Shown here piece after piece: positions 2,543 through 59,917 of a DNA stretch of 64,000 nucleotides. Under the pieces are notes generated by a model. It saw only the letters and a program-made list of their open reading frames with translations. It was not told the DNA's origin and searched no databases. The DNA lies in the sequence record OR449013; one strand, written 5' to 3'. The first letter of the stretch is position 1. Each line of letters begins with the position of its first letter. The translations under genes and the position numbers were made by a program. The stretch comes from Escherichia phage Mangalyan.

Positions 2543-3156
2543 TGGATATTATTGTTCTTAACGCCCCACCTAGTAGTGGTAAGGATCACATTGCAGATCT
2601 CTTGTTGGAAGCTATTCCTAACTCACACCATCGTGAGGTTAAGGAGATGCTCTTCAGCGTGGCAATTAAGGCAGCTGGTGTAACTCCTCAACTCTGGAAT
2701 GCACTTTATGACCGCCACTACAAAGAAGAGCCTTGCCCTTTCTTAATGATAGACGGTAAGCATGTTTCTCCGCGAGAGTGGATGATCCATTGTAGTGAAA
2801 ATCTGATTAAACCTATCTTTGGTGAAGATGCTTTCGGTAAGGCCGCAGTCACATCCTTGAAGAAAGATTTCCCTAAAGGTAAAGGGGTTGTTGTTTACTC
2901 CGATGGTGGATTCAAAGAGGAGCTGGCATGCCTTAGTGAGTACGCATACAGCACAGGTGGAGATCTGTTGTTGTTCCGTATTCACCGTGTCGGATATGAC
3001 TGGGGAAATGATTCCAGAACCTATCTAAGTCTGGAAAAGAACGGAATAAAAGGGATTGAGTTCGATGTTGTAAACCCTGAAGGTGCACCTTGGGAGTGTG
3101 CATCGGAGATTGTGTGCAAGTATATTGATGCTAAAGAGGCCCAAGAAGAATGTTAA
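2542..3156 (+). CDS. deoxynucleoside monophosphate kinase-like (P-loop) protein
   Basis: SD GGAGG; N-terminal P-loop LNAPPSSGKD resembles the start of phage dNMP kinases. Confidence 0.5.
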   Translation: MDIIVLNAPPSSGKDHIADLLLEAIPNSHHREVKEMLFSVAIKAAGVTPQLWNALYDRHYKEEPCPFLMIDGKHVSPREWMIHCSENLIKPIFGEDAFGKAAVTSLKKDFPKGKGVVVYSDGGFKEELACLSEYAYSTGGDLLLFRIHRVGYDWGNDSRTYLSLEKNGIKGIEFDVVNPEGAPWECASEIVCKYIDAKEAQEEC

Positions 3157-3945: not shown

Positions 3946-4928
3946 TGCTAAAACTGTGCACTGCAAAGATCATTGCTGACAGCATTTCCGAGAAAGGTAA
4001 GCGTATCACCACTTTTGAGCTAGAGTATCCTCGAATTATTCACTCAGAGCTTATGACGCACCGAGTGTTCAGCCGAAACGCCATGTCTTCCCGTGCAGTT
4101 CCTGTCGGCAAGATGCTGCAGCAGATTGTGGAGAATCCGGCAATGCCAGTTCGCTTCGGTGTAAATAAGCGAGGTATGGAAGATGGTGGAGAACACGATC
4201 AAAAGATCCGTGTAGAGTACACTGACATGGAGCTAACCCCTGAAGAGTTTTGGAAAGAAGCTGCAAAAAACGCCGCTTGGCATGCAGAGAAGTTCGCCCT
4301 TGCTGGTTACCATAAACAAGTATGTAACCGCTTAGTGGAGCCGTTTCAGCGCATGAAAACAGTTGTAACAAGCACAGAGTGGAATAATTTTTTCCATCTC
4401 CGTTGCTGGCACGATGCGGATCCTACGATTCAGATGTTGGCTAATTGTATGTGGGAAGCTCTTGTGAATAGCACTCCTGAAATCCTTAAACCATGGCAAT
4501 GGCACACTCCATATGTAGAGCACGTTTATTTGGACGGAGAGTTTAACTACGCTGTACGTGACACAGAAGGAAAGCTCTGCATTCTCGATACTAAAGAAGC
4601 TCTGTCTATCAGTGCTAGTTGCTGTGCACAAGTATCTTATCGAAATATTGACAGCACGTTTGAAAAGGCAGACAGTGTGGCTAAAAAATTGATTGGTGGG
4701 GATCGTATCCATGCAAGCCCTTACGAGCACCAGGCAACACCTATGGATCACGATAACGCAATGGAACGTTTAAACTACTACCTGTCTTCATGTGAAATCA
4801 CACAAGACAGCTGTGTTTGGCAGGAAGGTGTAACCCATCAAGACCGTGATGGTAAATTCTGGTCTGCCAACTTTTGTGGGTGGGTTCAGCACAGACAACT
4901 GCTTAATAACCACTTCGTGAAAGGTTAA
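3945..4928 (+). CDS. thyX: FAD-dependent thymidylate synthase ThyX-like protein
   Basis: SD AGGAGAG; ELMTHRVFSRNAMSSR resembles the ThyX RHRxxSxNxxSxRY block; HLRCWHDADPTIQ resembles ThyX LRADSHAQWEIQ; divergent, with a C-terminal extension. Confidence 0.55.
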   Translation: MLKLCTAKIIADSISEKGKRITTFELEYPRIIHSELMTHRVFSRNAMSSRAVPVGKMLQQIVENPAMPVRFGVNKRGMEDGGEHDQKIRVEYTDMELTPEEFWKEAAKNAAWHAEKFALAGYHKQVCNRLVEPFQRMKTVVTSTEWNNFFHLRCWHDADPTIQMLANCMWEALVNSTPEILKPWQWHTPYVEHVYLDGEFNYAVRDTEGKLCILDTKEALSISASCCAQVSYRNIDSTFEKADSVAKKLIGGDRIHASPYEHQATPMDHDNAMERLNYYLSSCEITQDSCVWQEGVTHQDRDGKFWSANFCGWVQHRQLLNNHFVKG

Positions 4929-4929
4929 T

Positions 4930-4957
4930 CCTATCACAGCGATAGGTAACTTTTGTG
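4930..4957 (+). terminator. weak hairpin terminator after thyX-like gene
   Basis: CCTATC-acagc-GATAGG then taacTTTTgtg. Confidence 0.3.
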
Positions 4958-4986
4958 TTGACTAATAGTATCAGATAATCTATAAT
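4958..4986 (+). promoter_or_regulatory. sigma70-like promoter
   Basis: TTGACT, 17-nt spacer, TATAAT. Confidence 0.6.
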
Positions 4987-5014
4987 AATGGCTCACTTTG
5001 TTGGTGAGCCAGAA

Positions 5015-5488
5015 ATGGAGACAGATATGAGTAATGTTATGATTCCTAAAAAGACATTTATTTCAGTTACTTTAGATTTCCTAGCTACCGTCCCTGGGTT
5101 TAACGTTCGCACACGAAACGGTCTCCGAGCTGCACTCTTTGCCGTAGGGTTTGATTTAAAAAGTATTGATGTTCTTCGTGGAAAAAACGTTCGATGCAAA
5201 AATAAGCCAACACATTATCGAAAGGCAGATGTATTTGCTGGTGTTATGCGTGCAGACTTTAGATACCCGCAAATGTATAACGGTGTAGATATTTTAGATG
5301 TGGATAAAGCACCTGGTGAGGCAATGCTTGTTCAAGATCTCCCGTATGATATCCCAGTAGAGGATCGTGTTAATGTAAGAAAGTATACAAAACAATCTGA
5401 AAAGGCTGAAGATATTCATATTGTTGATGAACCTTTCAATTTTGAAGATCTGCATCGCCTGGAAAAATTATTCGGTATTGAAAGCTAA
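5015..5488 (+). CDS. hypothetical protein
   Basis: ORF track start 4988 lies 1 nt after the -10, so a downstream in-frame ATG is preferred (5015 with GGTGAG SD, or 5027 with GGAGA SD). Confidence 0.45.
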   Translation: METDMSNVMIPKKTFISVTLDFLATVPGFNVRTRNGLRAALFAVGFDLKSIDVLRGKNVRCKNKPTHYRKADVFAGVMRADFRYPQMYNGVDILDVDKAPGEAMLVQDLPYDIPVEDRVNVRKYTKQSEKAEDIHIVDEPFNFEDLHRLEKLFGIES

Positions 5489-5729: not shown

Positions 5730-8041
5730 TCACCAAGGTAATTAAAAGCAACGGATGTGAGGTAGCATTCGATCCAGAACGTTTAAATAAGGCAGCTATT
5801 TTCGGTGACGACGGTAACGGCAATTGGTCACATATTGCACTGGATGCATACAAACGACTGTATGATGGATGTACAACCAAAGAAGTTAACCAAGCTATCA
5901 TAGACTCCTGTGTTAGCCGTAAAGACGAAGCACATTCCCGTATGGCTGGTCGTGTTCTTATTGGTCAGATTTATAAAGAGGCTTTTGGAGGGTTTACAAA
6001 GATCCCTTCCTTACCATCATTTTACAATACCATGGTTGAGAAAGGGTATTGGGAGGATATGGGCTATAGCTTTACCGAGCTAAACACTTTAGACGCTGTT
6101 ATTGACCACAGTAAAGATCTCGGTTATGGCTATGCAGTCCTTAAACAGTTTCGCGACAAATACGGGATCAAGGATACTCTTAAAGACACCTTGTTTGAAT
6201 CTCCCCAGATGATGTTTATGGGGATAGCAATGGCTGTCATGAAGAATATGCCGAAAGAACGTCGTATCAACGATGTTGTAAAATTATACACTTATCTGTC
6301 CGACTTAAAGATCAATGCCCCGACACCGTACTTAAACGGGCTGCGCACAGGTAAGACAGGGTATGCATCTTGTTGTGTAATAAAAGCTGACGATACAGCA
6401 AAATCTATTGGTGTGGCACGTGAAGTTGCGTACACAATGACGGTTAACCAAGCAGGTATCGGCTACTATTTATCATCAAGATCTGCAGGCGATGGTGTTC
6501 GTGGTAACACTATTAAACACATGGGTAAGATTCCATATTATCGAGGTATTGATGCTGGGGTTAAGGAGAACAGACAACAATCACGTGGCGGTTCTGCAAC
6601 AGTATCATTTCTTGCACTAGACCCGCAGATTGATGAGCTAATCCGTTTGAGAAACCCTATGACTGTTGCTTCAAAAAGAATCAACACCATGGACTACTCC
6701 ATCGGTATTAATAGGTCGTTTATCAACCGTGTGGCTAAGAATTTGGATTGGATGCTTGTTTCTTATAAGCACGCGCCTCAACTGCATGAGGGTATCTTCA
6801 CCATGTCTATGGAGGAGTTTGATGCAGAGGTTGATCGTATTGCTAAAGATGACAGTATTCCTAAAACATGGATCCGGGCCAGAGATCTTGCTGTTGAACT
6901 GATCACGCAGCGTACTGAGGTGGGAAGGCTGTATGTATACTGGACAGATGAGATGAATAGACATACACCTTTTAAAGATGTGATCTATTCAAGTAACCTG
7001 TGTGCAGAAATAGCCCTCCCGACAAAAGGCTATTCAGATATGCGTAATATCTTCAAGTACGATGCTGATGATGGAGAGGTTGCATTGTGCTTCCTGTCAT
7101 CTCTTGTAGCTGGGAGGGTTACTCCAGAGGAGTATGAGGATGTTGCATACTATACGGTGCTTATGATTGACAATGTTATGGAAATCATGACATATCCGTA
7201 TGAAAATATGGAAAGCACAGTTAAAAAACGCAGATCCATCGGGGTTGGCCTTACCAATGTTGCACATTTTATTGCCAGCCACAAGGTTACTTACGGATCT
7301 CCTGAAAGTAAACAGCTCGTTCACGATCTTGCAGAACTTCACAGCTACAGCTTGCATAAGGCAAGTTTACGGTTGGCAAAAGAGCGTGGTGTCTGCGAGT
7401 GGATGCATAAAACAAAATATCCAGAAGGTTGGTTACCAATCGACACCTATAACAAAGAGGTCGATAGCGTGGTGAAAGATCCTTCTCTTAAACAGGATTG
7501 GGAAGGGTTACGTAAAGAAATCATTGAAAATGGTGGGCTACGTAATAGCGTTCTTGAAGCATATATGCCTAATGAAAGCTCTTCGCTGGCAACAAACACC
7601 ACTAACGGGGTCTATCCTGTCCGTGAGCACATTATCTTTAAAAAGTCGCCACAAGGGCAGGTGCTGTTTATCGTTCCTGACTATGATGAGTTGAAAGAGT
7701 ATTACACTTCGGCTTGGGACGTTGATACTAACGACATGATCGATATGTATGCTGTGATTCAAAAATTCACAGGTCAGGCAATCAGCGCGGATTTGTACAT
7801 AGACTACACCAAGTTGAAAGATGGTAAAATTTCAATGAAGGAGCAGCTAGGGTACCTTATCCGTGCCACTAAATTCGGAATGAAGACATGGTATTATTTA
7901 AACTCTAGGGTTGGTGCTGGCGACTCCTTGGCAGAGGAACTTCATGCCAAGAAACAGGCTGAAGATGAAACCAGAAAGAACTATCCTTTGAATGCAGATA
8001 GTTCAGTTGAAGATCAGTATTGCGAAAGTTGTGCACTATAA
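5726..8041 (+). CDS. nrdA: class I ribonucleotide reductase large subunit
   Basis: 771 aa; N-terminal ATP-cone-like VIKSNGCEVAFDPERLNK; active-site block SSNLCAEIALP; TTG start after GGAGGAAG. Confidence 0.85.
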   Translation: MITKVIKSNGCEVAFDPERLNKAAIFGDDGNGNWSHIALDAYKRLYDGCTTKEVNQAIIDSCVSRKDEAHSRMAGRVLIGQIYKEAFGGFTKIPSLPSFYNTMVEKGYWEDMGYSFTELNTLDAVIDHSKDLGYGYAVLKQFRDKYGIKDTLKDTLFESPQMMFMGIAMAVMKNMPKERRINDVVKLYTYLSDLKINAPTPYLNGLRTGKTGYASCCVIKADDTAKSIGVAREVAYTMTVNQAGIGYYLSSRSAGDGVRGNTIKHMGKIPYYRGIDAGVKENRQQSRGGSATVSFLALDPQIDELIRLRNPMTVASKRINTMDYSIGINRSFINRVAKNLDWMLVSYKHAPQLHEGIFTMSMEEFDAEVDRIAKDDSIPKTWIRARDLAVELITQRTEVGRLYVYWTDEMNRHTPFKDVIYSSNLCAEIALPTKGYSDMRNIFKYDADDGEVALCFLSSLVAGRVTPEEYEDVAYYTVLMIDNVMEIMTYPYENMESTVKKRRSIGVGLTNVAHFIASHKVTYGSPESKQLVHDLAELHSYSLHKASLRLAKERGVCEWMHKTKYPEGWLPIDTYNKEVDSVVKDPSLKQDWEGLRKEIIENGGLRNSVLEAYMPNESSSLATNTTNGVYPVREHIIFKKSPQGQVLFIVPDYDELKEYYTSAWDVDTNDMIDMYAVIQKFTGQAISADLYIDYTKLKDGKISMKEQLGYLIRATKFGMKTWYYLNSRVGAGDSLAEELHAKKQAEDETRKNYPLNADSSVEDQYCESCAL

Positions 8042-8048
8042 TTTTAAA

Positions 8049-8068
8049 GGGGCTTCGGCCCCATTTTA
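8049..8068 (+). terminator. intergenic hairpin between nrdA and nrdB (attenuator or partial terminator)
   Basis: GGGGC-ttcg-GCCCC followed by ATTTTA. Confidence 0.35.
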
Positions 8069-8080
8069 GAGGTTAGAATA

Positions 8081-9169
8081 ATGGCTGTATTTAATGCTGA
8101 GAACACCGCTCATAAAACTGGTGACTATCCGCTGTTTCTAGGACAGCAAATGGGTATGTACGACTCTATCAACAAAAAATATCCACAACTGTTTGAACTA
8201 TACAAAAAACAAAAAGAACAAGACTGGGCAGAGGATGAAGTGGATTTGTCGCAATCTATTTCAGATTTTGTAACATGCTCAAAGTCAACTTATGACGTGA
8301 TGGTGCAGACCTTGATGTGGCAATGGGAGGCTGATAGCGTTGCGGCAAGATCTATCATTTGTCTGTTTTCACCATTTATCACCAATAGTGAGCTTTTCAC
8401 TCTATTGATGAAACAGTCAGAGATTGAAGTTCTTCACGCACTAACTTACTCAGAGATTGTTAGACAATGCCTCCCCAATGCCCGTGAGATTATAGAAGAG
8501 ATTCAGGAAAACCAAAACGTTCTGAGCAGATCCGGCGTTATTGTCAAATACATGCAAGAGCTTGAGGTTATTGGTGCAAAATACCGACTGGATCCTTCTA
8601 GTGTTGAAGAAGATGTTGTGCGGAAATGCATTCTTAGAGCGCTTTTTGCACTTTTAGCTCTGGAAAGTATTGAGTTTATTGCAAGTTTTGCATGCACTTT
8701 CGCAGTAGCTGAGCAGGGTATCTTTGTTCAGGTGGCGCAGCTTGTTCAAAAAATCATGCTTGACGAAATGCTACATTCGAAAGGTGATTTTGCCATCATT
8801 GATATCCTGCTTAATGATCCCGCATGGGAGAAAAGCTTCCTTGAGATAAAAGGGGAGTTAAAAGAGATTCTTGATGAAGTACGAACCAAAGAGTACGGTT
8901 GGAGTGACTATATTTTCAGCGAAGGAAGAGCGATTATAGGTCTTAACTCACCGTTGCTTAAAGAATGGGTTGACTATAACTGCTCACCGATTTATGATTA
9001 CTACGACATCGACAAAGACTTTGTGCCGCCAACAAAGGACCCTCTACCGTTTATGCAGGTGTGGATGAAACCTTCATTGCAACAGACGGCGAACCAAGAA
9101 ATGTCGAACACTGACTACCGCGTCAACACAACTGTTAACGACGCTGAAGAAGAAATTTGGGAGTTTTAA
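8081..9169 (+). CDS. nrdB: class I ribonucleotide reductase small subunit
   Basis: 362 aa immediately downstream of nrdA; ferritin-like E..H pairs (VLHALTYSE, DEMLHSKGD); acidic C-terminal tail. Confidence 0.8.
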   Translation: MAVFNAENTAHKTGDYPLFLGQQMGMYDSINKKYPQLFELYKKQKEQDWAEDEVDLSQSISDFVTCSKSTYDVMVQTLMWQWEADSVAARSIICLFSPFITNSELFTLLMKQSEIEVLHALTYSEIVRQCLPNAREIIEEIQENQNVLSRSGVIVKYMQELEVIGAKYRLDPSSVEEDVVRKCILRALFALLALESIEFIASFACTFAVAEQGIFVQVAQLVQKIMLDEMLHSKGDFAIIDILLNDPAWEKSFLEIKGELKEILDEVRTKEYGWSDYIFSEGRAIIGLNSPLLKEWVDYNCSPIYDYYDIDKDFVPPTKDPLPFMQVWMKPSLQQTANQEMSNTDYRVNTTVNDAEEEIWEF

Positions 9170-25786: not shown

Positions 25787-25804
25787 TTTTCTTGCACACA
25801 GGTG

Positions 25805-25833
25805 TTGACAACACCAACCCTGTGTGAAATAAT
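25805..25833 (+). promoter_or_regulatory. sigma70-like promoter with -35 inside a palindrome
   Basis: TTGACA, 17-nt spacer, AATAAT; -35 embedded in GGTGTTGACAACACC, itself inside CACACAGG...CCTGTGTG. Confidence 0.5.
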
Positions 25834-32689: not shown

Positions 32690-32718
32690 AATATAGCAAA
32701 ACTGCCGATCCCTGTCAA
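32690..32718 (-). promoter_or_regulatory. sigma70-like promoter with -35 inside a hairpin
   Basis: - strand TTGACA, 17-nt spacer, TATATT; -35 lies in ATCCCTG-gttga-CAGGGAT. Confidence 0.5.
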
Positions 32719-32783
32719 CCAGGGATAGCATAATTTTTATGTGATCAAGGGGCTTTATTACCCCCTGACCGTAACTTGTTGTA

Positions 32784-35806: not shown

Positions 35807-35881
35807 GATTTTTATCCTCTTTGTGGTTGGTGGGGCTTGTTGCCCCCTTTGATTTATATACTACAGTTTTATATGGTCATG

Positions 35882-36115
35882 TCAACACTTTTCAAAAAAT
35901 TTTTCTGCCGTGATATTCTTCCCGGTAGGGTTCGCTACTTTCAAAATTTTATCATGCACTGGACGCCCAAAAGAATAAGATCCGTATACAGTAAACCAAT
36001 AATCTCCGTCAGGCTGTACTATTACCGCCGCATATGGTACGCCTTTTTCGTTTTTGCTGACAAAATAGATCACATTACCATTAATAGCCTCAGCGCGTTT
36101 AATTTGTTCCATCAT
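35882..36115 (-). CDS. hypothetical protein
   Basis: 77-aa ORF, SD AGAGAGG. Confidence 0.5.
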   Translation of the reverse strand: MMEQIKRAEAINGNVIYFVSKNEKGVPYAAVIVQPDGDYWFTVYGSYSFGRPVHDKILKVANPTGKNITAEKFFEKC

Positions 36116-36990: not shown

Positions 36991-37036
36991 GCCTATCACT
37001 CCTTGTTAACTGCGTGGTATTTTAACAGGGTTTAAA

Positions 37037-37081
37037 TTTACTTTATTGATGGCCTTGGAGTCAAGGCCATCTAAAAATAAA
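37037..37081 (-). promoter_or_regulatory. conserved ~45-nt promoter cassette, copy 1
   Basis: - strand TTTATTTTTAGATGGCCTTGACTCCAAGGCCATCAATAAAGTAAA: AT-rich upstream, 9-bp hairpin carrying TTGACT, then GTAAAT/TAAATT. Confidence 0.5.
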
Positions 37082-37083
37082 TT

Positions 37084-37284
37084 TTACAGGCCTACAATCT
37101 CTTTAATTCGTTTTACTGCTGCCTCAGCGCCTTGAGGGTAAAAATTATGGTAACCAATCACGCGAGTGATACTAATCGCCGTTTGATGATCTTCATAATC
37201 ACCTTTAAAGATTTCTTGACCGTCAATCAGCACGGCAATTTTTTCTTCTTTTTTGAAGTTAATAACGCGGATATTGTTGCTCAT
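37084..37284 (-). CDS. hypothetical protein
   Basis: 66-aa ORF, SD AAGGAG. Confidence 0.5.
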   Translation of the reverse strand: MSNNIRVINFKKEEKIAVLIDGQEIFKGDYEDHQTAISITRVIGYHNFYPQGAEAAVKRIKEIVGL

Positions 37285-37425
37285 TTTGTTTCTCCTTTCT
37301 GGTTTTTGTGGTGGTGGGGATTAGCTCCCCGTTGATTGTTATTATCCACATTCCGGACCGGATTGCAACACCCCGGAAGAATTTTTTTTTTTTTAAAGAT
37401 AGGCCCCCATGATCGGGGGCCGTTC

Positions 37426-37545
37426 TTAGTTACTTACAGCGATAAAGTACATCCCTACGCCTAGCAATATTTCAAGGGCGATAATCTCAAGCCATACCAT
37501 AACGCGGCGCACCTTATCGGTGCGGGGCTTATCCTTGGGTGTCAT
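37426..37545 (-). CDS. small membrane peptide, 39 aa
   Basis: SD GGGGGAG; ATGA overlap with upstream stop; MTPKDKPRTDKVRRVMVWLEIIALEILLGVGMYFIAV. Confidence 0.4.
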   Translation of the reverse strand: MTPKDKPRTDKVRRVMVWLEIIALEILLGVGMYFIAVSN

Positions 37546-37787
37546 CGTCTCCCCCTTCCCTTCTGGTAGTAGTGACGTGGTTTACAATGGCCCCCAGGAG
37601 TATTATCACCACGCACATTACAAGAAAAATTATCTCTGTCGTTGTTCGATCCATTGTTATAAAATTCCTTAAGATCAGGCCTGAAAATAAAGCTTTCATT
37701 ATTGAATCCATCCCGCCAGGCGGCTGGCCTCAAATCTTCACTAAATGGATTAATTAACGTGGTATTATTTAAACGGCTGGCCCACAT
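37542..37787 (-). CDS. hypothetical Asn/Gly-rich protein
   Basis: ATG 37787 with SD GAGAGGA; stop overlaps downstream ATG. Confidence 0.4.
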   Translation of the reverse strand: MWASRLNNTTLINPFSEDLRPAAWRDGFNNESFIFRPDLKEFYNNGSNNDRDNFSCNVRGDNTPGGHCKPRHYYQKGRGRR

Positions 37788-38136
37788 ATTTTCTATTCCT
37801 CTCAAATAAGCGATCCGCCTCAGTTAAACAAATCTCATGGGCGTGATCTCTGGTTTTAGCTTCATCGAAAACCTGTTGTGCAAGGCTGCAACGTAGGGAG
37901 ACTGGAAGATCACTATAATAGGCGTTGACAAACGTTTGAGCGTCGTACAGGTCGGAAAATACTTTACCCTTTCTATTATTCCCCTTGTCAACAATTGCAA
38001 GGATAACCAATACAATAGTTGCAACCACCCCCAGGAAAATAGATATAATAAACCATAAAAAGGCGGATCTTCCCATCTTGCCAGCGATCCAGGCGTTAAA
38101 CAAGGCAACCAATACAGCCAAAATAATAAATTCCAT
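37765..38136 (-). CDS. membrane protein (two N-terminal TM helices)
   Basis: ATG 38136 with SD AAGAGGT; MEFIILAVLVALFNAWIAG...FLWFIISIFLGVVATIVLVILAIV. Confidence 0.5.
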   Translation of the reverse strand: MEFIILAVLVALFNAWIAGKMGRSAFLWFIISIFLGVVATIVLVILAIVDKGNNRKGKVFSDLYDAQTFVNAYYSDLPVSLRCSLAQQVFDEAKTRDHAHEICLTEADRLFERNRKYVGQPFK

Positions 38137-38200
38137 TCTATGTACCTCTTTTACAGTTCTGATTAACAATAAGGCGGCAAATATGCCGCCTGTTACCTGA

Positions 38201-38581
38201 TTAAAAATTATCGCCGTAAATCTTTCCGCTTTCTACCCATACCACCACGCGAGGCATACTATCCCACACGTCTTGTTTTAGATTGAGCGCGTGCAATTCT
38301 TCGGTGGTGCTCATACCGGGCACGGGCTGATTGTATACTGCAAAACGACCGCCTGCATAATCATAGGCCAGGGTTAAATCACACTGGATCATCTTTTTGA
38401 TCATGGCATTAAGCATGGCGTTAGCCGCATATTGGTCACGTTTTAAAGGCAACTCTTTGATTAGTTTGCGATAGTTTTCGATATGGTCGCACACTGTTTC
38501 ACGCGGAAGATCTTTCATATCCTCGCGAAAGGTAACCAGGTTAAACATAACGGTGTCAATAGCCTTGGTAGTGTTTTTCAT
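38201..38581 (-). CDS. hypothetical protein
   Basis: 126-aa ORF, SD AAGAGGA; GC hairpin in 5' leader. Confidence 0.5.
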   Translation of the reverse strand: MKNTTKAIDTVMFNLVTFREDMKDLPRETVCDHIENYRKLIKELPLKRDQYAANAMLNAMIKKMIQCDLTLAYDYAGGRFAVYNQPVPGMSTTEELHALNLKQDVWDSMPRVVVWVESGKIYGDNF

Positions 38582-38635
38582 GATTTTATCCTCTTTGTTT
38601 TGTGTGGGGGCAAACGTCTTGCCCCCTTGAGTTTT

Positions 38636-38663
38636 AATATAGCAGGTTTTTAGGTTATTGCAA
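38636..38663 (-). promoter_or_regulatory. candidate sigma70-like promoter
   Basis: - strand TTGCAA, 16-nt spacer, TATATT. Confidence 0.45.
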
Positions 38664-38671
38664 CACTTTAT

Positions 38672-39295
38672 TTATGAAAAAGTCATCTCGCCATATTCAT
38701 CCACATCAAACCGCCAATCATTGGCCTCGATAAGGCCGATCAGGTTTTCGGTAGTGAATTGTTCAAGATAGGCCCCCTCCAGGTCTACGTAAACCTTGCG
38801 GGATAGCTCCCGTACCGTCTCGGTGATCAGCTCTTCCAGGTCTTCCACTTTGTTTTCTTGTTTGGCGGTCAGATCTAGCCAGGTGGTATCAATGTATCCG
38901 CTTACAGTGTTTTCATGGCTGTAATGGCTGTACTTGTCGCGTTCAACACTGGCCGATAACTCGCCATCGTGCATTGTGCCGAACAAGTGACGAATTGATC
39001 GGAACTTGGTCAGGGCCTTGACTTTACGCAAGAATTTTTCTAAGTCTACATTTTCAGCACTAATCGATGCGCCATCGCCTTGACACCAAAAGCCGGACCA
39101 ATGTACTTCGGTATCTTCAAGGCCGTACTCTGGAAAAACTTGTTCTTTATAGTATTCAATTACATTTTCTGCAAAAAAGTTATCCCCGCTGTGTTCTTCT
39201 CTTTCGCGTACCATTTCAATGGCTTTTTCTTTTTGTTCGTCGGTCAGCACGTCGAAAGATAAATTGTAACCTGTGGTAATGTTAACGGTGGTCAT
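38672..39295 (-). CDS. hypothetical acidic protein, 207 aa
   Basis: SD AGGAG; conserved-looking HWSGFWCQGDGASI block; family not recognised. Confidence 0.5.
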   Translation of the reverse strand: MTTVNITTGYNLSFDVLTDEQKEKAIEMVREREEHSGDNFFAENVIEYYKEQVFPEYGLEDTEVHWSGFWCQGDGASISAENVDLEKFLRKVKALTKFRSIRHLFGTMHDGELSASVERDKYSHYSHENTVSGYIDTTWLDLTAKQENKVEDLEELITETVRELSRKVYVDLEGAYLEQFTTENLIGLIEANDWRFDVDEYGEMTFS

Positions 39296-39369
39296 GATAT
39301 TTTCTCCTGTTTTCTTTGTTAGTGGCGGGAAGTTTTCCCGCCTATGTTTTTAATTATACTTATCAAGAT

Positions 39370-39630
39370 TTACTTGTCAACACTATTTTTTAAATTATTG
39401 TGGCGCAAAATGTTTAAAATCTCCTCAACGTCATCAACACGGCGGCAATTTTTAAACGCTACCAATTGCCCCAAGATTTTAATTACTGGGCGGCCTTGCC
39501 AGTGACCTTGAAGAAAGCGCGCTTTAACTTTATCGGTGGAACTATCACGCCACCAAATAGCCTTGTTGTTGCAGTAGTAAAAATTATTCAGGATAACATC
39601 AACCTTATCAAAATTTTTTAATTTACGCAT
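39370..39630 (-). CDS. hypothetical basic protein
   Basis: 86-aa ORF, SD AAAGGAG. Confidence 0.5.
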   Translation of the reverse strand: MRKLKNFDKVDVILNNFYYCNNKAIWWRDSSTDKVKARFLQGHWQGRPVIKILGQLVAFKNCRRVDDVEEILNILRHNNLKNSVDK

Positions 39631-39840
39631 GGCGTTTACTCCTTTCTCTCTTTGATGTGGTTAGTATAGCTAACCTGTTTAAGATGTCAAGCTTTAAATA
39701 AAATCACTGTCAATAATATTTTTAACGCCATAAAACGGTCCTGGGCGATGTTTTCAGGTTAAAGGGGGCGATTTTGCATAGGTGGGGGCCTTTTTGGCGC
39801 TTACAGGGCCAACCAGGGGCGCTATTCGTAGGATAGAAAC

Positions 39841-39865
39841 AAAAAGCCCCGCACAATGGCGGGGC
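39841..39865 (-). terminator. rho-independent terminator
   Basis: on - strand GCCCCGC-cattgt-GCGGGGC followed by TTTTTGTTTC. Confidence 0.65.
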
Positions 39866-39873
39866 GTTGGTTG

Positions 39874-40071
39874 TTATTTGTCTTTATGGCGGTACCGTTC
39901 CGCCTGTCGTTCACGTTCCAAAAGTAGGCTGGGCAATTTACGATCATAATGATTGCGCCAGATCTTCCCAAACCTTTTTGGCTTATTCAGTTTATTGTTA
40001 CGCTGGCGGCGTTCCGGCAGCTCTTCGGAATCATGAGGGCGCTTTACAATTTTCTCGAAATTAATTTTCAT
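39874..40071 (-). CDS. small highly basic protein
   Basis: 65 aa, Arg/Lys-rich; SD GGGGGG. Confidence 0.45.
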   Translation of the reverse strand: MKINFEKIVKRPHDSEELPERRQRNNKLNKPKRFGKIWRNHYDRKLPSLLLERERQAERYRHKDK

Positions 40072-40415
40072 ATATTCCCCCCCTTGCTAACTTCAATATT
40101 GGCCTGAATGGCCCGGATACGGCGCTTTATAACTTCCTGATCTGTGTGATCGTATCCCCAAAAGTCCACAATTTTTGCGCCCCCCGCCTCCAGGCGGTAT
40201 AGTGTTTCCTGCATTTTGTAAGCCGGGATCGGTCGCGGTGTTACTTGGTCACCTTCTTTATTTTTATACTTTATAATATAATCTTCGTTATCGTTAAATG
40301 TCCAAAATGGATATTCTGCAAGGGCGGTACTTCCTCTTTCCTTTTTATCCTGGATCTTGTTTACAATTAAAGCCGTAGCAATAGCGCCAATAATAAAACT
40401 AGCCCCGCTAATCAT
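40068..40415 (-). CDS. membrane-anchored protein
   Basis: ATG 40415 with SD AAGGAG; N-terminal TM ISGASFIIGAIATALIV. Confidence 0.45.
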   Translation of the reverse strand: MISGASFIIGAIATALIVNKIQDKKERGSTALAEYPFWTFNDNEDYIIKYKNKEGDQVTPRPIPAYKMQETLYRLEAGGAKIVDFWGYDHTDQEVIKRRIRAIQANIEVSKGGNI

Positions 40416-40489
40416 GTACTTTCTCCTTTCATTGTATTGATAAACTATCTTTATAGATGGCCCTGCAACCAGGACCACCGAAAAAATAA

Positions 40490-40735
40490 CTATTTCACAA
40501 TGCCTACAAAACAGATTCCGCCTTCACCTATATAGGCAATATCGGTAATTTTATAATTTGTCAAGATCCGCGTGTTCAGCTCATTAATAAAATCGGTCAT
40601 CGCGTTGGTGTAGTTGTCTTCCGTATCTAAGGCATAATCCCAGGTGTAAACCTTTTTACGTCCGAAGCCTTTTACCATGATACGGGCGCTTTTGGTGTTG
40701 GTAGGGGCATAATATTTGGTGATTAGTGCTGCCAT
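40490..40735 (-). CDS. hypothetical protein
   Basis: 81-aa ORF, SD AGGAG. Confidence 0.5.
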   Translation of the reverse strand: MAALITKYYAPTNTKSARIMVKGFGRKKVYTWDYALDTEDNYTNAMTDFINELNTRILTNYKITDIAYIGEGGICFVGIVK

Positions 40736-40778
40736 GGTTTTAACTCCTATGCATTAGTTCAGTGTTAACAGTATAAAG

Positions 40779-40823
40779 TTTACTTTATTGATGGCCCTGG
40801 TGTCAAGGCCATCTAAAAATAAA
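40779..40823 (-). promoter_or_regulatory. conserved ~45-nt promoter cassette, copy 2
   Basis: near-identical to 37037..37081; -35 here is TTGACA. Confidence 0.5.
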
Positions 40824-40824
40824 T

Positions 40825-41166
40825 TTACTCGTTTTCTTCCAGTTCTGCAAGCTCTTCTTTCACTTCTTCCAGCTCTGTCTGCAATTCTTGGTACTCTTCA
40901 TCGTCCTCAATATCCAGGCTGTCGATGTAGTCGCTAAATCCGCAGCGGTAAGCGATAGGATCTAACTCCTTGAGGATACGCGACGGAAGAAAAGAAATGT
41001 TTCCGATCATAATTTCGCCATAGATCTCGTCTAGCCATTCATCATAGTTTTCGTCGTACTTGTCCTCGTCGATTTCAAAGTTATCGATCTTGTTCTCAAG
41101 GTCTGCGATCTGTTTTTTCAGCGCGGCGATCTGAATAGCTTTTTCTGCGGCGGTCATAGTAGTCAT
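40825..41166 (-). CDS. hypothetical acidic coiled-coil protein
   Basis: 113-aa ORF, SD AAGGAGA. Confidence 0.5.
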   Translation of the reverse strand: MTTMTAAEKAIQIAALKKQIADLENKIDNFEIDEDKYDENYDEWLDEIYGEIMIGNISFLPSRILKELDPIAYRCGFSDYIDSLDIEDDEEYQELQTELEEVKEELAELEENE

Positions 41167-41216
41167 GGTGTTTTCTCCTTTTTGTGTTTTGGGAAGTTTT
41201 CCCGTTTACGTGTTTA

Positions 41217-41244
41217 AGTATACCGATTTGGGTTAGCTTGTCAA
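41217..41244 (-). promoter_or_regulatory. sigma70-like promoter
   Basis: - strand TTGACA, 16-nt spacer, TATACT. Confidence 0.5.
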
Positions 41245-41364
41245 TTAAAAATTTAAGAAAAATTTTGCAAAACTGTTGGCGCTACCCATCAACATTTGCG
41301 CCAGGATGTACCCAATGATGCAAACGATGATGGTTACCTTTGTGTGCTGGCGTGTAGTGCTCAT
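41245..41364 (-). CDS. small hydrophobic peptide, 39 aa
   Basis: SD GGAGGC 6 nt before ATG; MSTTRQHTKVTIIVCIIGYILAQMLMGSANSFAKFF. Confidence 0.35.
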   Translation of the reverse strand: MSTTRQHTKVTIIVCIIGYILAQMLMGSANSFAKFFLNF

Positions 41365-41398
41365 CTTTAAGCCTCCTTTTCCGCTCAACTGTGGTTAG

Positions 41399-41443
41399 TT
41401 TACTTTATTGATGGCCCTGGAGTCAAGGCCATCTAAAAATAAA
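41399..41443 (-). promoter_or_regulatory. conserved ~45-nt promoter cassette, copy 3
   Basis: near-identical to copies at 37037 and 40779. Confidence 0.5.
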
Positions 41444-41444
41444 C

Positions 41445-41840
41445 TCAATAAGTTTTTAGTACTTTCCCGTCCAATCTGTCAAGCTGGATCTCGATAGCTG
41501 CAGAAAACCTATTGTAAACCACATCGCCCAGGGAGTCCAGCCAATCTATGACGTTATATACCTGCTCTTTATTCTTGCAAGTCCGGATCCGTTTCATTAC
41601 GTAAGACGGATCAATATTAGCGCTCTCGTTGTTGTGGTCCTGCGCCTGGCCTGCTGCGCTAATTATAGATTTTACAACCACCTGAAAGGGCTTTAAGGTG
41701 CCTTTTGCGTTCATCTCACGCGCTTTTGCGGCGCGGTTGTTATATGTTACACAACGGCGGCAAATGTTGACCAAATGCATATCAATAATTTTTTCATCGT
41801 TTGCCAGTTCGTTCATGATGCGGCGTACGTTCTTATTCAT
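41445..41840 (-). CDS. hypothetical protein
   Basis: 131-aa ORF, SD AAAGGA. Confidence 0.5.
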   Translation of the reverse strand: MNKNVRRIMNELANDEKIIDMHLVNICRRCVTYNNRAAKAREMNAKGTLKPFQVVVKSIISAAGQAQDHNNESANIDPSYVMKRIRTCKNKEQVYNVIDWLDSLGDVVYNRFSAAIEIQLDRLDGKVLKTY

Positions 41841-41922
41841 GATCTTTTTCCTTTGTGCTGGCGGGAAACATTCCCGCCTTTTGTGTCTAGTTTACTTAAA
41901 TTTTGCAGCGTGTCAATGATTT

Positions 41923-43174: not shown

Positions 43175-43321
43175 GTTATTCTGCAAACGAGAATGATTAT
43201 CATTCAAAATTCTAAATGAGAACTCCTCGCATTTAATAAATTTAATTAGCATGCTAATTACCCTCCGTAACAATTTCCTATAAAACAGTATCCCATAAAA
43301 TATTCCCATATAGAAATTTTA

Positions 43322-43504
43322 AAAATCCATTTCTGAAAACGAAAAATCGATTTCGTCCCCAAAAATTTCAGGTCGAGATCCGGAACGATTTCCAGAAAAT
43401 CCGATTTAGAAAACGAAAAACAGATCGAGTACTGAGAAATTTATCGAGAAAAATTTTCAGAAAATCCAAGCCATGAAATGAAAAGTAGATCGAGTACTGG
43501 AAAA
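43322..43504. repeat. AT-rich iteron array (~60-nt period)
   Basis: three degenerate direct repeats built on TTTCAGAAAATCC...GAAAA..AGATCGAGTACTG; inverted copies near 43672-43700. Confidence 0.55.
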
Positions 43505-43806
43505 ATTGTACCGCAACCCACTGATAGTGATGGGTTTTCCGTCATAAATCACTAAGAGTGAGTGGAGAAAGGTATGGTGGAGAGGTGTGTATGTGTGGGA
43601 AATATGGAACGGTGATCTCGAGTATGGTGCAAACGGCTAGATAGATTGGCACAATTTTCCGCGCTTGTGTTGAAAAAATCCATTTTAGTTTTCGATCCAT
43701 TTTCTGATTTTCTAAGAATTTTAAAATATCTATGTGTTCAAAATATCAGGAGAAAATACATTTTAGAAATTCCCCTGATTTCTGGCAACTTGGCAATTTA
43801 AAAATA

Positions 43807-47290: not shown

Positions 47291-47319
47291 CAAAAATGCC
47301 CCACCCTTTCGGGCAGGGC
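47291..47319 (-). terminator. rho-independent terminator (copy 1 of an identical pair)
   Basis: on - strand GCCCTGCCC-gaaa-GGGTGGGGC (9 bp incl. 2 G.U) followed by ATTTTTG; the same stem has A.C mismatches if read on +. Confidence 0.7.
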
Positions 47320-59889: not shown

Positions 59890-59917
59890 CAAAAAGCCCC
59901 ACCCTTTCGGGCAGGGC
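59890..59917 (-). terminator. rho-independent terminator (copy 2 of an identical pair)
   Basis: same GCCCTGCCC-gaaa-GGGTGGGGC + TTTTTGC as at 47291..47319. Confidence 0.7.

Follow-up and report, generated by a model that had tools for sequence, protein, structure and literature searches.

Promoter-early stem-loops (PeSLs) have been described in the T4-like phages RB49/phi1, PST and nt-1 (Arbiol et al. 2010, PMC2839356; Comeau et al. 2014, PMC4122927). In RB49/phi1 they have demonstrated promoter and terminator/attenuator activity; one subclass carries the stem-loop over the -35 element, one stem-loop lowered the expression of downstream lacZ as much as rrnB T1, and recombination between two PeSLs leaves a chimeric PeSL behind (PMC2839356). 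A second system for comparison is provided by the early RNase III signals of phage T7 (R0.3, R0.5, R1, R1.1 and R1.3) and by uR1.1 (Pertzev & Nicholson 2006, PMC1540722).

The window analysed here is a stretch of 64,000 nucleotides from Escherichia phage Mangalyan (OR449013), a Vequintavirus (rV5-like coliphage). An earlier reading of the sequence alone had noted three near-identical copies of a 45-nt cassette, described as promoters with the -35 hexamer buried in a 9-bp hairpin. All three are exact matches to the pattern (37037-37081, 40779-40823 and 41399-41443 in + coordinates), which was absent from shuffled sequence (0 matches, n = 100). A diverged fourth copy, here named type B, had been overlooked. 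The family has four copies per genome, spread over 4.4 kb, and is not genome-wide like the PeSLs of RB49. All genes in the cassette region are on the - strand, and 0–2 nt separate the start of each copy from the stop codon of the gene before it (Table 1). On present sequence evidence, the cassette looks to be primarily an RNA hairpin, conserved in the coding strand, with three of the four copies promoter-like.

Table 1. Cassettes and neighbouring features of the early gene block, in order of transcription.
Feature	Position	Strand	Elements	Fold (kcal/mol)	Covariance model (bits)	Setting
Promoter of 131-aa gene	41889-41916	-	TTGACA-16-TAAACT			5' GC hairpin after it
Early gene, 131 aa	41445..41840	-				transcript enters copy 3
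Type A copy 3	41399..41443	-	sense TTTATTTTTA GATGGCCTTG ACTC CAGGGCCATC AATAAAGTAAA; upper stem 41410-41433; -35 TTGACT 41421-41426; -10 TAAACT 41397-41402	sense -25.1 (z -7.1)	81.8	starts 1 nt past stop codon of ORF 41445-41840
620-bp module between copies 3 and 2	40801..41420	-				present or absent among genomes
Module: 39-aa gene	41245-41364	-				
Module: canonical promoter	41217-41244	-	TTGACA-16-TATACT			with 5' hairpin
Module: 113-aa gene	40825-41166	-				
Type A copy 2	40779..40823	-	loop ACAC; -35 TTGACA 40801-40806; -10 TAAACT 40777-40782	-22.5	82	starts 1 nt past stop codon of ORF 40825-41166; following ATG 40735
81-aa gene	40490..40735	-				between copy 2 and type B
Type B cassette	about 40445..40489	-	sense TTATTTTTTC GGTGGTCCTG GTTG CAGGGCCATC TATAAAGATAG	sense -20.2, antisense -9.2	68.6	starts directly after stop codon of ORF 40490-40735
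Type A copy 1	37037..37081	-	-35 TTGACT 37059-37064; -10 TAAATT 37035-37040	-23.9	80.2	starts 2 nt past stop codon of ORF 37084-37284; following ATG 36990

The cassettes were compared across 14 genomes (53 copies, 37 variants), and an alignment, A1, was made of 34 distinct variants from the 14 genomes. The sense RNA has a conserved hairpin, in which a 2x3 internal loop separates a 10-bp GC stem from a 10-bp AU stem. There is thus a hairpin around the -35, as had been claimed, but its upper stem (GATGGCCTTG/CAAGGCCATC) is 10 bp long rather than 9, and only the 37037 copy has it in perfect form, with U-A at stem position 8. In the other two type A copies this C/T position forms a C.A mismatch on the + strand and a U.G wobble on the - (coding) strand.

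In alignment A1, 98.1% of the paired cells can pair in the sense orientation, against 86.9% in antisense and 35–56% when the partners are shifted. Pairing in the upper helix is complete (100%) although four positions carry one-sided changes, while the lower helix has compensatory two-sided changes at four pairs (columns 9-49, 10-48, 7-51 and 6-52; the states are UA/AU/GU/GC at 9-49, AU/UA at 10-48 and UA/CG at 7-51), although the number of independent substitutions is small because the genomes are closely related (93–95% identical) and the copies undergo gene conversion. Among the 17 core pairs, G.U is found at six positions and A.C at none. The minimum free energy (MFE) is -23.6 kcal/mol for sense and -15.0 kcal/mol for antisense, with sense lower in 34/34 variants. 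The feature shown by this comparison to be constrained is a predicted two-tier hairpin of about 50 nt in the sense-strand RNA.

Type B, with 69% identity, occurs in 14/14 genomes and has the same two-tier hairpin without a conserved -35 or -10. Across its variants the MFE is -24.5 kcal/mol in sense and -10.0 kcal/mol in antisense. Both stems are kept while the loop (GCTG, GTTG, GTAA or GTAG) varies freely, so that any -35 located there would vary too.

The three type A copies have sigma-70-like hexamers on the coding strand (TTGACT/TTGACA, 18 nt, TAAACT/TAAATT; score 9–10/12), and in this respect the promoter reading is partly supported. Their -35 lies 62, 71 and 74 nt before the next ATG, so the placement some 60–80 nt upstream of a small gene was correct. 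Within the 26 type A variants TTGAC is invariant, including loop bases 1-2 (AC), and loop bases 3-4 are free, with up to four nucleotides. The variants have T18/A6/G1/C1 as the sixth base, and their -10 reads TAAACT in 19 and TAAATT in 7. All three copies have a C(T/A)GTT motif 7–9 nt past the putative -10. TTGAC is the -35 of essentially all other promoters of the gene block, and TAAACT recurs as the -10 of a canonical promoter nearby, at 41916. The promoter is nevertheless suboptimal, with an 18-nt spacer against 16 in its neighbours and a -10 that matches at 4/6 positions. The promoter reading does not extend to type B, which lacks the hexamers, and insertions change the spacing in 2/14 genomes: the spacer is 19 nt in copy 3 of Phage 203, and an IMG/VR contig has a 5-nt loop plus an insertion, and TTGATA with options of 15- or 20-nt spacing. 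Conservation of the hexamers is confounded with that of the hairpin, because they overlap stem positions. A promoter is plausible since the three copies keep TTGACN-18-TAAAYT, and we put the chance that type A copies double as a sigma-70 promoter at somewhat better than even.

Most of the adjacent intergenic gaps contain TTGACA-16-TATAAT followed by a GC hairpin, and are another PeSL subclass. Elsewhere in the window, TTGACA lies in a short inverted repeat at 25797-25833 (+) and at 32703-32722 (-), each with a -10-like hexamer 17 nt downstream, as the sequence-only reading had reported.

Phages phiWec189, ECP26 and ime have a single hybrid cassette, with the upstream flank of copy 3 and the downstream flank of copy 2, and are missing exactly the 620 bp between these copies. 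The ime sequence aligns 140/140 to 41560-41421 of the window and then 150/150 to 40800-40651, placing the junction inside the cassette. Loop variants are often common to the copies of one genome. The comparison of genomes thus shows that the copies, being near-identical direct repeats, recombine homologously with one another, which deletes or inserts the gene module between them and homogenises the copies. The 81-aa gene behaves as a mobile accessory gene: using tblastn, matches of >90% identity are confined to Vequintaviruses, and unrelated phages such as CAjan, Greed and slur01 have 31–47%.

Like PeSLs, the cassettes are intergenic: they begin at the stop codon of the gene before, pass through an AT-rich tract and reach a sigma-70-like -35/-10, with a stable stem-loop that contains G.T pairs and overlaps the -35 as in one published subclass. 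They likewise lie together where small accessory early genes form a block, and when flanking copies recombine, the gene between them is lost and a single chimeric cassette remains, as in ime, ECP26 and phiWec189. They differ in belonging to the Vequintavirinae lineage and showing no sequence similarity to T4-like phages; in having four copies per genome within 4.4 kb rather than dozens; in the stem, which is GATGGCC.../...GGCCATC rather than Gn-loop-Cn; and in the second, AU-rich tier with its internal loop. One copy is a stem-loop without a promoter, and the activities of the Mangalyan cassette are predicted ones. E. coli REP elements can protect upstream mRNA from 3' exonucleases and serve as recombination substrates. 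They too are repeated imperfect palindromes right after stop codons without a U-tract, but they are host elements with a different consensus, hundreds of copies and no promoters.

The cassette covariance model was also run against 6 kb of T7 early DNA on both strands. The top three matches were full-length and lay over intergenic hairpins, which we take, after Dunn & Studier 1983, to be R1, R0.3 and R1.1, although they were weak (E 0.4–6.7) and amount to no detectable homology. The boxes of the cassette were mapped on the uR1.1 register (PMC1540722). In type A, db1 is U-A, db2 is U.G, pb2 is A-U and pb4 lacks G-C; the middle-box pairs are the same as in uR1.1 or favourable, and proximal-box 1 and 3 are U-A and G-C, where the uR1.1 optimum is G-C and A-U. 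The U.G distal-box pair is present in 25/26 type A variants and absent from type B; its position at db2 would explain an otherwise odd pair. By analogy, the cassette RNA hairpin resembles the T7 processing signals. Both are intercistronic hairpins in coliphage early transcripts made by host polymerase. A tetraloop closes a 9–11-bp upper stem containing G.U, below which an asymmetric internal loop leads to a lower stem, the whole spanning about two helical turns. They share the distal box (U-A then U.G, base pairs 2-3 under the loop) and the A-U of proximal-box 2, and promoters share these gaps in T7 also (E. coli promoters B and C; T7 promoters phi1.1A, phi1.1B and phi1.3). Apart from proximal-box 1 and 3, the differences are that the lower stem of the cassette is longer and almost purely A-U, that its promoter is inside the hairpin itself, and that its cleavage is predicted only.

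It is possible, though we think it rather improbable, that the element works solely as an RNA hairpin (an intercistronic processing site, 3' stabiliser or attenuator) with no transcription start at the cassette, the -35 and -10 of type A being a by-product of a TTGAC-topped stem and an AU-rich lower stem. Type B maintains the hairpin without any promoter, the two orthologs with altered promoter spacing keep it too, the -10 positions all lie in the lower stem, the promoter score is modest and the spacer long, and the cassette is missing from the promoter table of the rV5 authors. Set against this are the invariant loop AC beside free bases 3-4, which TTGAC needs and the stem does not, the use of TTGAC and TAAACT by nearby promoters, and the C(T/A)GTT motif in all three type A copies. 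An intrinsic (Rho-independent) terminator that simply stops transcription of the upstream gene is unlikely. The Murica annotation does label the orthologs of copy 1 and of type B as 45-nt terminators on the coding strand, all copies are immediately behind a stop codon, and there is the precedent of the PeSL stem-loop that matched rrnB T1 (PMC2839356). However, the stem lacks a U-tract behind it: its 3' tail reads AAUAAAGUAAA and the T-tract stands 5' of it, and the other strand is no different. A consensus terminator scan called true terminators nearby (39846-39865, 37402-37421 and 38172-38191) and none of the cassettes, the EdH4 annotation has no terminator label on them, and terminators are not characterised by an AU-rich lower stem that is conserved and compensated and adjoins an internal loop.

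The sequence-only reading had suggested a shared operator or DNA-structure-dependent promoter control. Such a model, with the palindrome bound by a dimeric regulator of phage or host, or extruded as a promoter-gating cruciform, now seems more unlikely still. Imperfect dyads are common operators; near-perfect inverted repeats do surround TTGAC in three copies, and two more promoters in the window hold TTGACA within short inverted repeats. The pairing is strand-specific, however, since G.U in the sense strand is A.C on the other. This is unexpected for a double-stranded dyad or a cruciform, because a cruciform needs both strands paired, and dsDNA symmetry cannot explain the preference for sense pairing and folding described above. 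Moreover, the stem reaches into the AT-rich 'UP-like' and '-10' flanks and has compensatory changes there, beyond any plausible half-site; the half-sites of type B have diverged from each other and still pair as RNA, with no promoter to regulate; and no regulator is evident. Strand asymmetry alone cannot tell RNA from single-stranded DNA, because DNA hairpins presumably tolerate G.T, and a hairpin of the coding-sense DNA strand acting in replication or recombination (priming, nicking or a hot spot) with no RNA role would fit the recombination documented between copies. We consider it the least likely of these accounts: all four copies sit precisely in the space that separates a stop codon from the following ribosome-binding site, oriented with transcription, their architecture and distal-box pairs fit RNase III substrates, and 45-nt direct repeats recombine without need of a hairpin.

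The cassette is better described as an intercistronic RNA hairpin that may double as a promoter in three copies. On balance we lean towards the hypothesis that it is a composite PeSL-type regulatory element, promoter and stem-loop in one, within the hyperplastic block of early genes in a Vequintavirus. The hairpin would form in the sense (- strand) RNA of transcripts that pass the stop codon of the upstream gene, and would act at the mRNA level as a signal for intercistronic processing, for stabilising 3' ends or for attenuation. The most probable form is an RNase III-type site, with cleavage on the 3' side of the internal loop, after which the upper hairpin would cap the end of the upstream mRNA; the geometry and the distal-box pairs (U-A, U.G) match T7 R1.1-type signals. 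The type A DNA may also be a moderate sigma-70 promoter, made up of a T-rich tract, TTGACN topping the stem, an 18-nt spacer and TAAAYT, that would restart transcription for the next gene. In type B this promoter layer would have been lost or never present. An architecture already published for T4-like phages would thus now be found in the early block of a Vequintavirus.

The 45-nt pattern described in the sequence-only reading is found exactly at three places in the window, and 100 shuffles that preserved dinucleotides yielded no match to it. A fourth, diverged copy, with 69% identity, emerged from a repeat search and from a search for the stem under relaxed conditions. The first three copies and their orthologs are here called type A, and the fourth type B. 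All genes of the block are on the - strand. The sense (coding-strand) sequence of type A is TTTATTTTTA-GATGGCCTTG-ACNN-CA(G/A)GGCCATC-AATAAAGTAAA, and that of type B is GGTGGTCCTG-GNNN-CAGGGCCATC. The interval between the upstream stop codon and a copy is 0-2 nt in every case, that between the copy and the next ATG is 34-46 nt, and the flanking genes encode hypothetical proteins of 39-131 aa.

Positions of the cassettes and of other features discussed in the text
Feature	Sequence	Position	Strand
Copy 1 (type A)	window	37037-37081	-
Copy 2 (type A)	window	40779-40823	-
Copy 3 (type A)	window	41399-41443	-
Type B copy	window	40445-40489 (about 40442-40492 in the repeat and stem searches)	-
81-aa gene	window	40490-40735	-
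620-bp module	window	40801-41420	
Segments aligned to ime (140/140; 150/150)	window	41560-41421; 40800-40651	
Canonical promoter with -10 TAAACT	window	41916	
Gaps with promoter and GC-rich hairpin	window	35807-35893; 37285-37368; 38582-38679; 39296-39389; 41167-41252; 41841-41922	-
Inverted repeat CACACAGG...CCTGTGTG	window	25797-25833	+
Inverted repeat CCCTG-GTTGA-CAGGG	window	32703-32722	-
Non-coding gap, 243 nt	window	39631-39873	
Terminator within this gap	window	39846-39865	
Extra DNA, ~550 bp	MiataMamis	about 7534-8299	
AT-rich array	window	43304-43507	
Run of ~13 T	window	37383-37398	+
Bidirectional-looking terminator hairpin	window	37402-37421	
Copies of AAAA(T/A)GCCCCACCCTTTCGGGCAGGGC	window	47293-47319; 59891-59917	
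285-nt "Rho-independent terminator"	rV5 (DQ832317)	4771-5055	
T7 match, presumably R1	T7	3098-3155	
T7 match, presumably R0.3	T7	850-907	
T7 match, presumably R1.1	T7	5847-5902	

The region is 93-95% identical to the Escherichia Vequintaviruses EdH4, Murica, FV3 and rV5, and by BLAST the cassette is restricted to this genus, typically at three places per genome. Identity of 93-95% to E. coli Vequintaviruses is also seen here in about 17-21 MG0656xx "Campylobacter phage" records (C12, A142, A147 and others, labelled as Campylobacter jejuni phages), at least one of which is flagged UNVERIFIED; the hosts given for them are probably incorrect. In all, 53 copies were taken from the window and 13 related genomes, representing 37 distinct variants, with three type A sites and one type B site per genome. 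A covariance model built from the copies matches the 64-kb window at the four known sites and nowhere else. It detected no further diverged copies in ~100 kb of Murica and EdH4, a stretch that covers all but ~4-5 kb of a full genome (roughly Murica 50-54.6 kb). The family therefore numbers four copies, all in 4.4 kb of the early-gene block. No Rfam covariance model reached its gathering score in the window, and the matches at E up to 5 between 36900 and 41600 were no better than chance. A pattern scan of IMG/VR for the stem was uninformative, with 25 matches that were mostly unrelated palindromes. A protein-anchored search of IMG/VR returned one close Vequintavirus and seven distant contigs, whose repeats are unrelated and so add no covariation. 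Analogous cassettes were sought in other genera of the Vequintavirinae via the 81-aa gene downstream of copy 2, which gave no orthologous gap for comparison because the distant homologs of this gene occur only in unrelated phages.

With a few flanking bases, the 45 nt fold as one two-tier hairpin: an upper stem of 10 bp, capped by a tetraloop, is joined through a 2x3 internal loop to an A-U lower stem of ~10 bp. The sense strand folds at -20 to -25 kcal/mol and the other at -9 to -20 kcal/mol, and the z-scores of the sense-strand folds are -6.7 to -7.9. Pairing in the upper helix is 100%, in spite of four positions with one-sided changes (A-U/G.U, C-G/U.G, U.G/C-G/U-A and G-C/G.U). The lower helix has two-sided changes at four pairs, of which columns 9-49 follow the path A-U to G.U to G-C, and columns 10-48 go from A-U to U-A.

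The earlier proposal that the dyad is an operator, or controls the promoter through DNA structure, implies that it should be kept at the level of double-stranded DNA, and this is not what is seen. In an ungapped alignment of 34 variants, standard pairs make up 98.1% of cells on the sense strand, 86.9% on the antisense strand and 35-56% with slid partners, although the independent events behind these counts are few, since the genomes are close relatives and sequence is exchanged among the copies. The mean minimum free energy is -23.6 kcal/mol for the sense strand against -15.0 kcal/mol for the antisense strand, the sense being lower in 34/34 variants; for type B alone the values are -24.5 and -10.0 kcal/mol. 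Among 17 core pairs, G.U occurs at six positions and A.C at none. Random transitions would give either equally, and by our own inference a sign test over positions puts this bias at about 1/64. A palindromic operator or a cruciform-gated promoter is not supported, in view of the pairing difference between the strands, these G.U positions and the weak antisense fold of type B. Judged from the substitutions, the constrained feature is the RNA hairpin of the sense strand, which very probably has some role at the RNA level.

A terminator is the reading adopted in the Murica record, where the orthologs of copy 1 and of type B are annotated as 45-nt "terminators". An intrinsic (Rho-independent) terminator was rejected: there is no U-tract after the stem on either strand, the tail being AAUAAAGUAAA, and a scan for terminators (at least 5 T in 8) flagged none of the cassettes on either strand, while it did flag true terminators nearby. 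The cassettes are unannotated in the EdH4 record. The rV5 record and Table S4 of its paper list the neighbouring canonical promoters but not the cassette, and neither stem arm is present in that paper's table of promoters and terminators. The rV5 record also has a 285-nt terminator feature that nearly coincides with ORF196, apparently an annotation error. A MITE-like mobile element was likewise rejected, there being no target-site duplications and all copies being at fixed orthologous sites. Two conflicting readings of the same 45 nt are corrected, as a terminator in Murica and as a promoter with an operator in the sequence-only reading.

The promoter half of the latter is plausible for the three type A copies. 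These have TTTATTTTTA followed by TTGACN-18-TAAAYT, matching 9-10 of 12 consensus positions. TTGAC is invariant in 26/26 type A variants, including bases 1-2 of the loop; loop bases 3-4 vary (T/A/C/G and C/T), so that the hexamer is free at its sixth base. The -10 reads TAAACT or TAAATT, and a canonical promoter close by likewise has TAAACT. The neighbouring promoters have TTGACA-16-TATAAT (10-12 of 12), as against the 18-nt spacer of the cassettes. On balance the type A copies are somewhat more likely than not to be active promoters. The promoter does not extend to type B, which has no promoter hexamers: its loop is variable (GCTG, GTTG, GTAA, GTAG) and no -10 follows, so that here the hairpin is kept without a promoter. 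The hairpin is also retained in Phage 203, where a 1-nt insertion gives a 19-nt spacer, and in one IMG/VR Vequintavirus with a 5-nt loop and an insertion. A literature search found no published transcript mapping in a Vequintavirus.

The architecture of the hairpin resembles that of RNase III processing signals, for which box definitions and a helix-length rule are given by Pertzev & Nicholson (PMC1540722). The cassette has the helix geometry of such signals, with 10 + 10 bp around the internal loop, which is separated from the tetraloop by ten base pairs and an eleventh that is non-canonical (A x A or C x U). The internal loop of these signals, which limits cutting to one strand and leaves a 3' hairpin, has a counterpart in the asymmetric 2x3 loop, conserved in both type A and type B. 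The numbering of the boxes was checked on three pairs named in PMC1540722 (A9:U30, U12:G27 and C13:G26), and the proximal box used for comparison was of the uR1.1 type, G-C / A-U or U-A / A-U / A-U or U-A (PMC1540722).

Comparison of the type A hairpin with RNase III box preferences
Position	PMC1540722	Type A	Agreement
Distal box 1	U-A	U-A	match
Distal box 2	U.G (strict)	U.G	match
Middle box	C-G, then U.G (G-C enhances)	C-G, then G-C	match
Proximal box 1	G-C	U-A	mismatch
Proximal box 2	A-U or U-A	A-U	match
Proximal box 3	A-U	G-C	mismatch
Proximal box 4	not G-C	A x A	match

The antideterminant positions 2 and 4 of the type A proximal box are free of G-C. The distal-box U-A and U.G are present in 25/26 type A variants (columns 25-32 and 24-33, respectively), and the strict U.G at distal box 2 would explain the conserved wobble. 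Base pair 3 below the tetraloop is U-A in copy 1 of the window and C-G in type B, in which the distal-box U.G is absent; the distal-box pairs also vary among natural T7 sites. The early intergenic gaps of T7 fold similarly, into upper stem, internal loop and lower stem, and when the cassette covariance model was run on 6 kb of T7, both strands, its best three matches were full-length and at sites that we take to be R1, R0.3 and R1.1. Their scores are weak (E 0.4-6.7), and they therefore indicate a shared architecture only, and not homology. Processing of the cassette hairpin by RNase III appears quite possible, if short of probable.

The closest known parallel is the promoter-early stem-loop cassette (PeSL), described in the T4-like phages RB49/phi1 (PMC2839356) and PST/nt-1 (PMC4122927). 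A PeSL lies between genes and combines an AT-rich tract and a sigma-70-like promoter with a stem-loop (PMC2839356, PMC4122927). They form five subclasses according to the position of the stem-loop, which in one overlaps the -35; in a lacZ assay the stem-loop behaved as a terminator/attenuator, promoter activity was confirmed, and recombination of flanking PeSLs yields a chimeric PeSL (PMC2839356). PeSLs are further characterised by the formation of mini-circles. The cassette studied here shares the position between genes and the stem-loop over the -35, with TTGAC at the top of the 10-bp stem. The AT-rich upstream region and sigma-70-like boxes are present in type A and not in type B, and the type A promoter is a weaker match than the consensus-identical promoters of PeSLs. 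In the literature we found no report of PeSLs beyond T4-like phages.

Cassette-bounded indels that leave a chimeric cassette are also seen. The 620-bp module between copies 3 and 2, which encodes proteins of 39 aa and 113 aa and also contains a canonical promoter, is exactly present or absent, with its junction within the cassette. In 3/14 genomes (phiWec189, ECP26 and ime) a single hybrid cassette is flanked upstream as copy 3 is and downstream as copy 2 is; ime aligns without mismatch to both flanks. Loop variants are often common to the copies of one genome, which suggests concerted evolution. Elsewhere in the block, a terminator and two promoter-like sites lie in the 243-nt non-coding gap. 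MiataMamis and an IMG/VR contig are longer by ~550 bp here, the additional DNA including several small ORFs, and type B and copy 1 are 3957-3958 nt apart in them, compared to about 3380-3410 nt in the others. This gap is another indel hot spot.

Most other gaps of the block have TTGACA-16-TATAAT and then a GC hairpin just past the -10, and are another PeSL subclass. A strong sigma-70 promoter (TTGACA/TTGCAA-16-TATAAT-like) is present in nearly every one, with the GC-rich hairpin (e.g. GGCGGGAAAACTTCCCGCC) 8-15 nt past the -10, followed by an A-rich leader. T-runs follow these hairpins on the opposite strand, where the scan flags + strand terminators; they may serve in 5'-end stabilisation, attenuation of read-through or blocking of antisense transcription. 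The two further promoters reported to hold TTGACA within palindromes were confirmed, each having a -10-like hexamer after a further 17 nt. Both agree with the PeSL subclass whose stem-loop overlies the -35, but in sequence they are unrelated to the cassette.

Some other repeats were noted in the window. Just upstream (in the sense direction) of the early-gene block are three tandem-like copies of a ~65-nt AT-rich unit, 62-100% identical, which could be iteron-like or regulatory. The two copies of AAAA(T/A)GCCCCACCCTTTCGGGCAGGGC, 96% identical, are probably a terminator hairpin repeated at distant points of the genome. The ~13-T run adjoins a bidirectional-looking terminator hairpin, and could be error-prone in sequencing or replication.

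The best description of the cassette is a PeSL-like composite, whose conserved core is a sense-RNA hairpin with the architecture of RNase III signals, and which also brings about the gain and loss of modules. A more ambitious proposal is that the 45 nt are a "cistron insulator" that is self-contained and dual-coded. In the RNA, host RNase III would cut it, which would sever read-through transcripts and leave the upstream mRNA capped by a protective hairpin. In the DNA, a sigma-70 promoter formed by the same bases would start transcription anew. Being a repeat, it would turn the flanked gene into a portable, pre-wired module, swappable between phages. Taken as a whole this is unlikely, but if true, modular shuffling of the PeSL type would reach past T4-like phages and gain an RNA-processing mechanism.

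The cassette is not a new kind of system, and its importance is therefore moderate. Host RNase III processing between early cistrons is a concrete, testable hypothesis, for which the exact sites of cleavage and of transcription start can be predicted, and if confirmed the cassette would be a compact natural part, combining transcript insulator and promoter, for engineering of phages or synthetic operons. Vequintaviruses are used for E. coli O157 typing and in phage therapy, and they too, not T4-like phages alone, have promoter/stem-loop cassettes by which small accessory genes are wired and shuffled.
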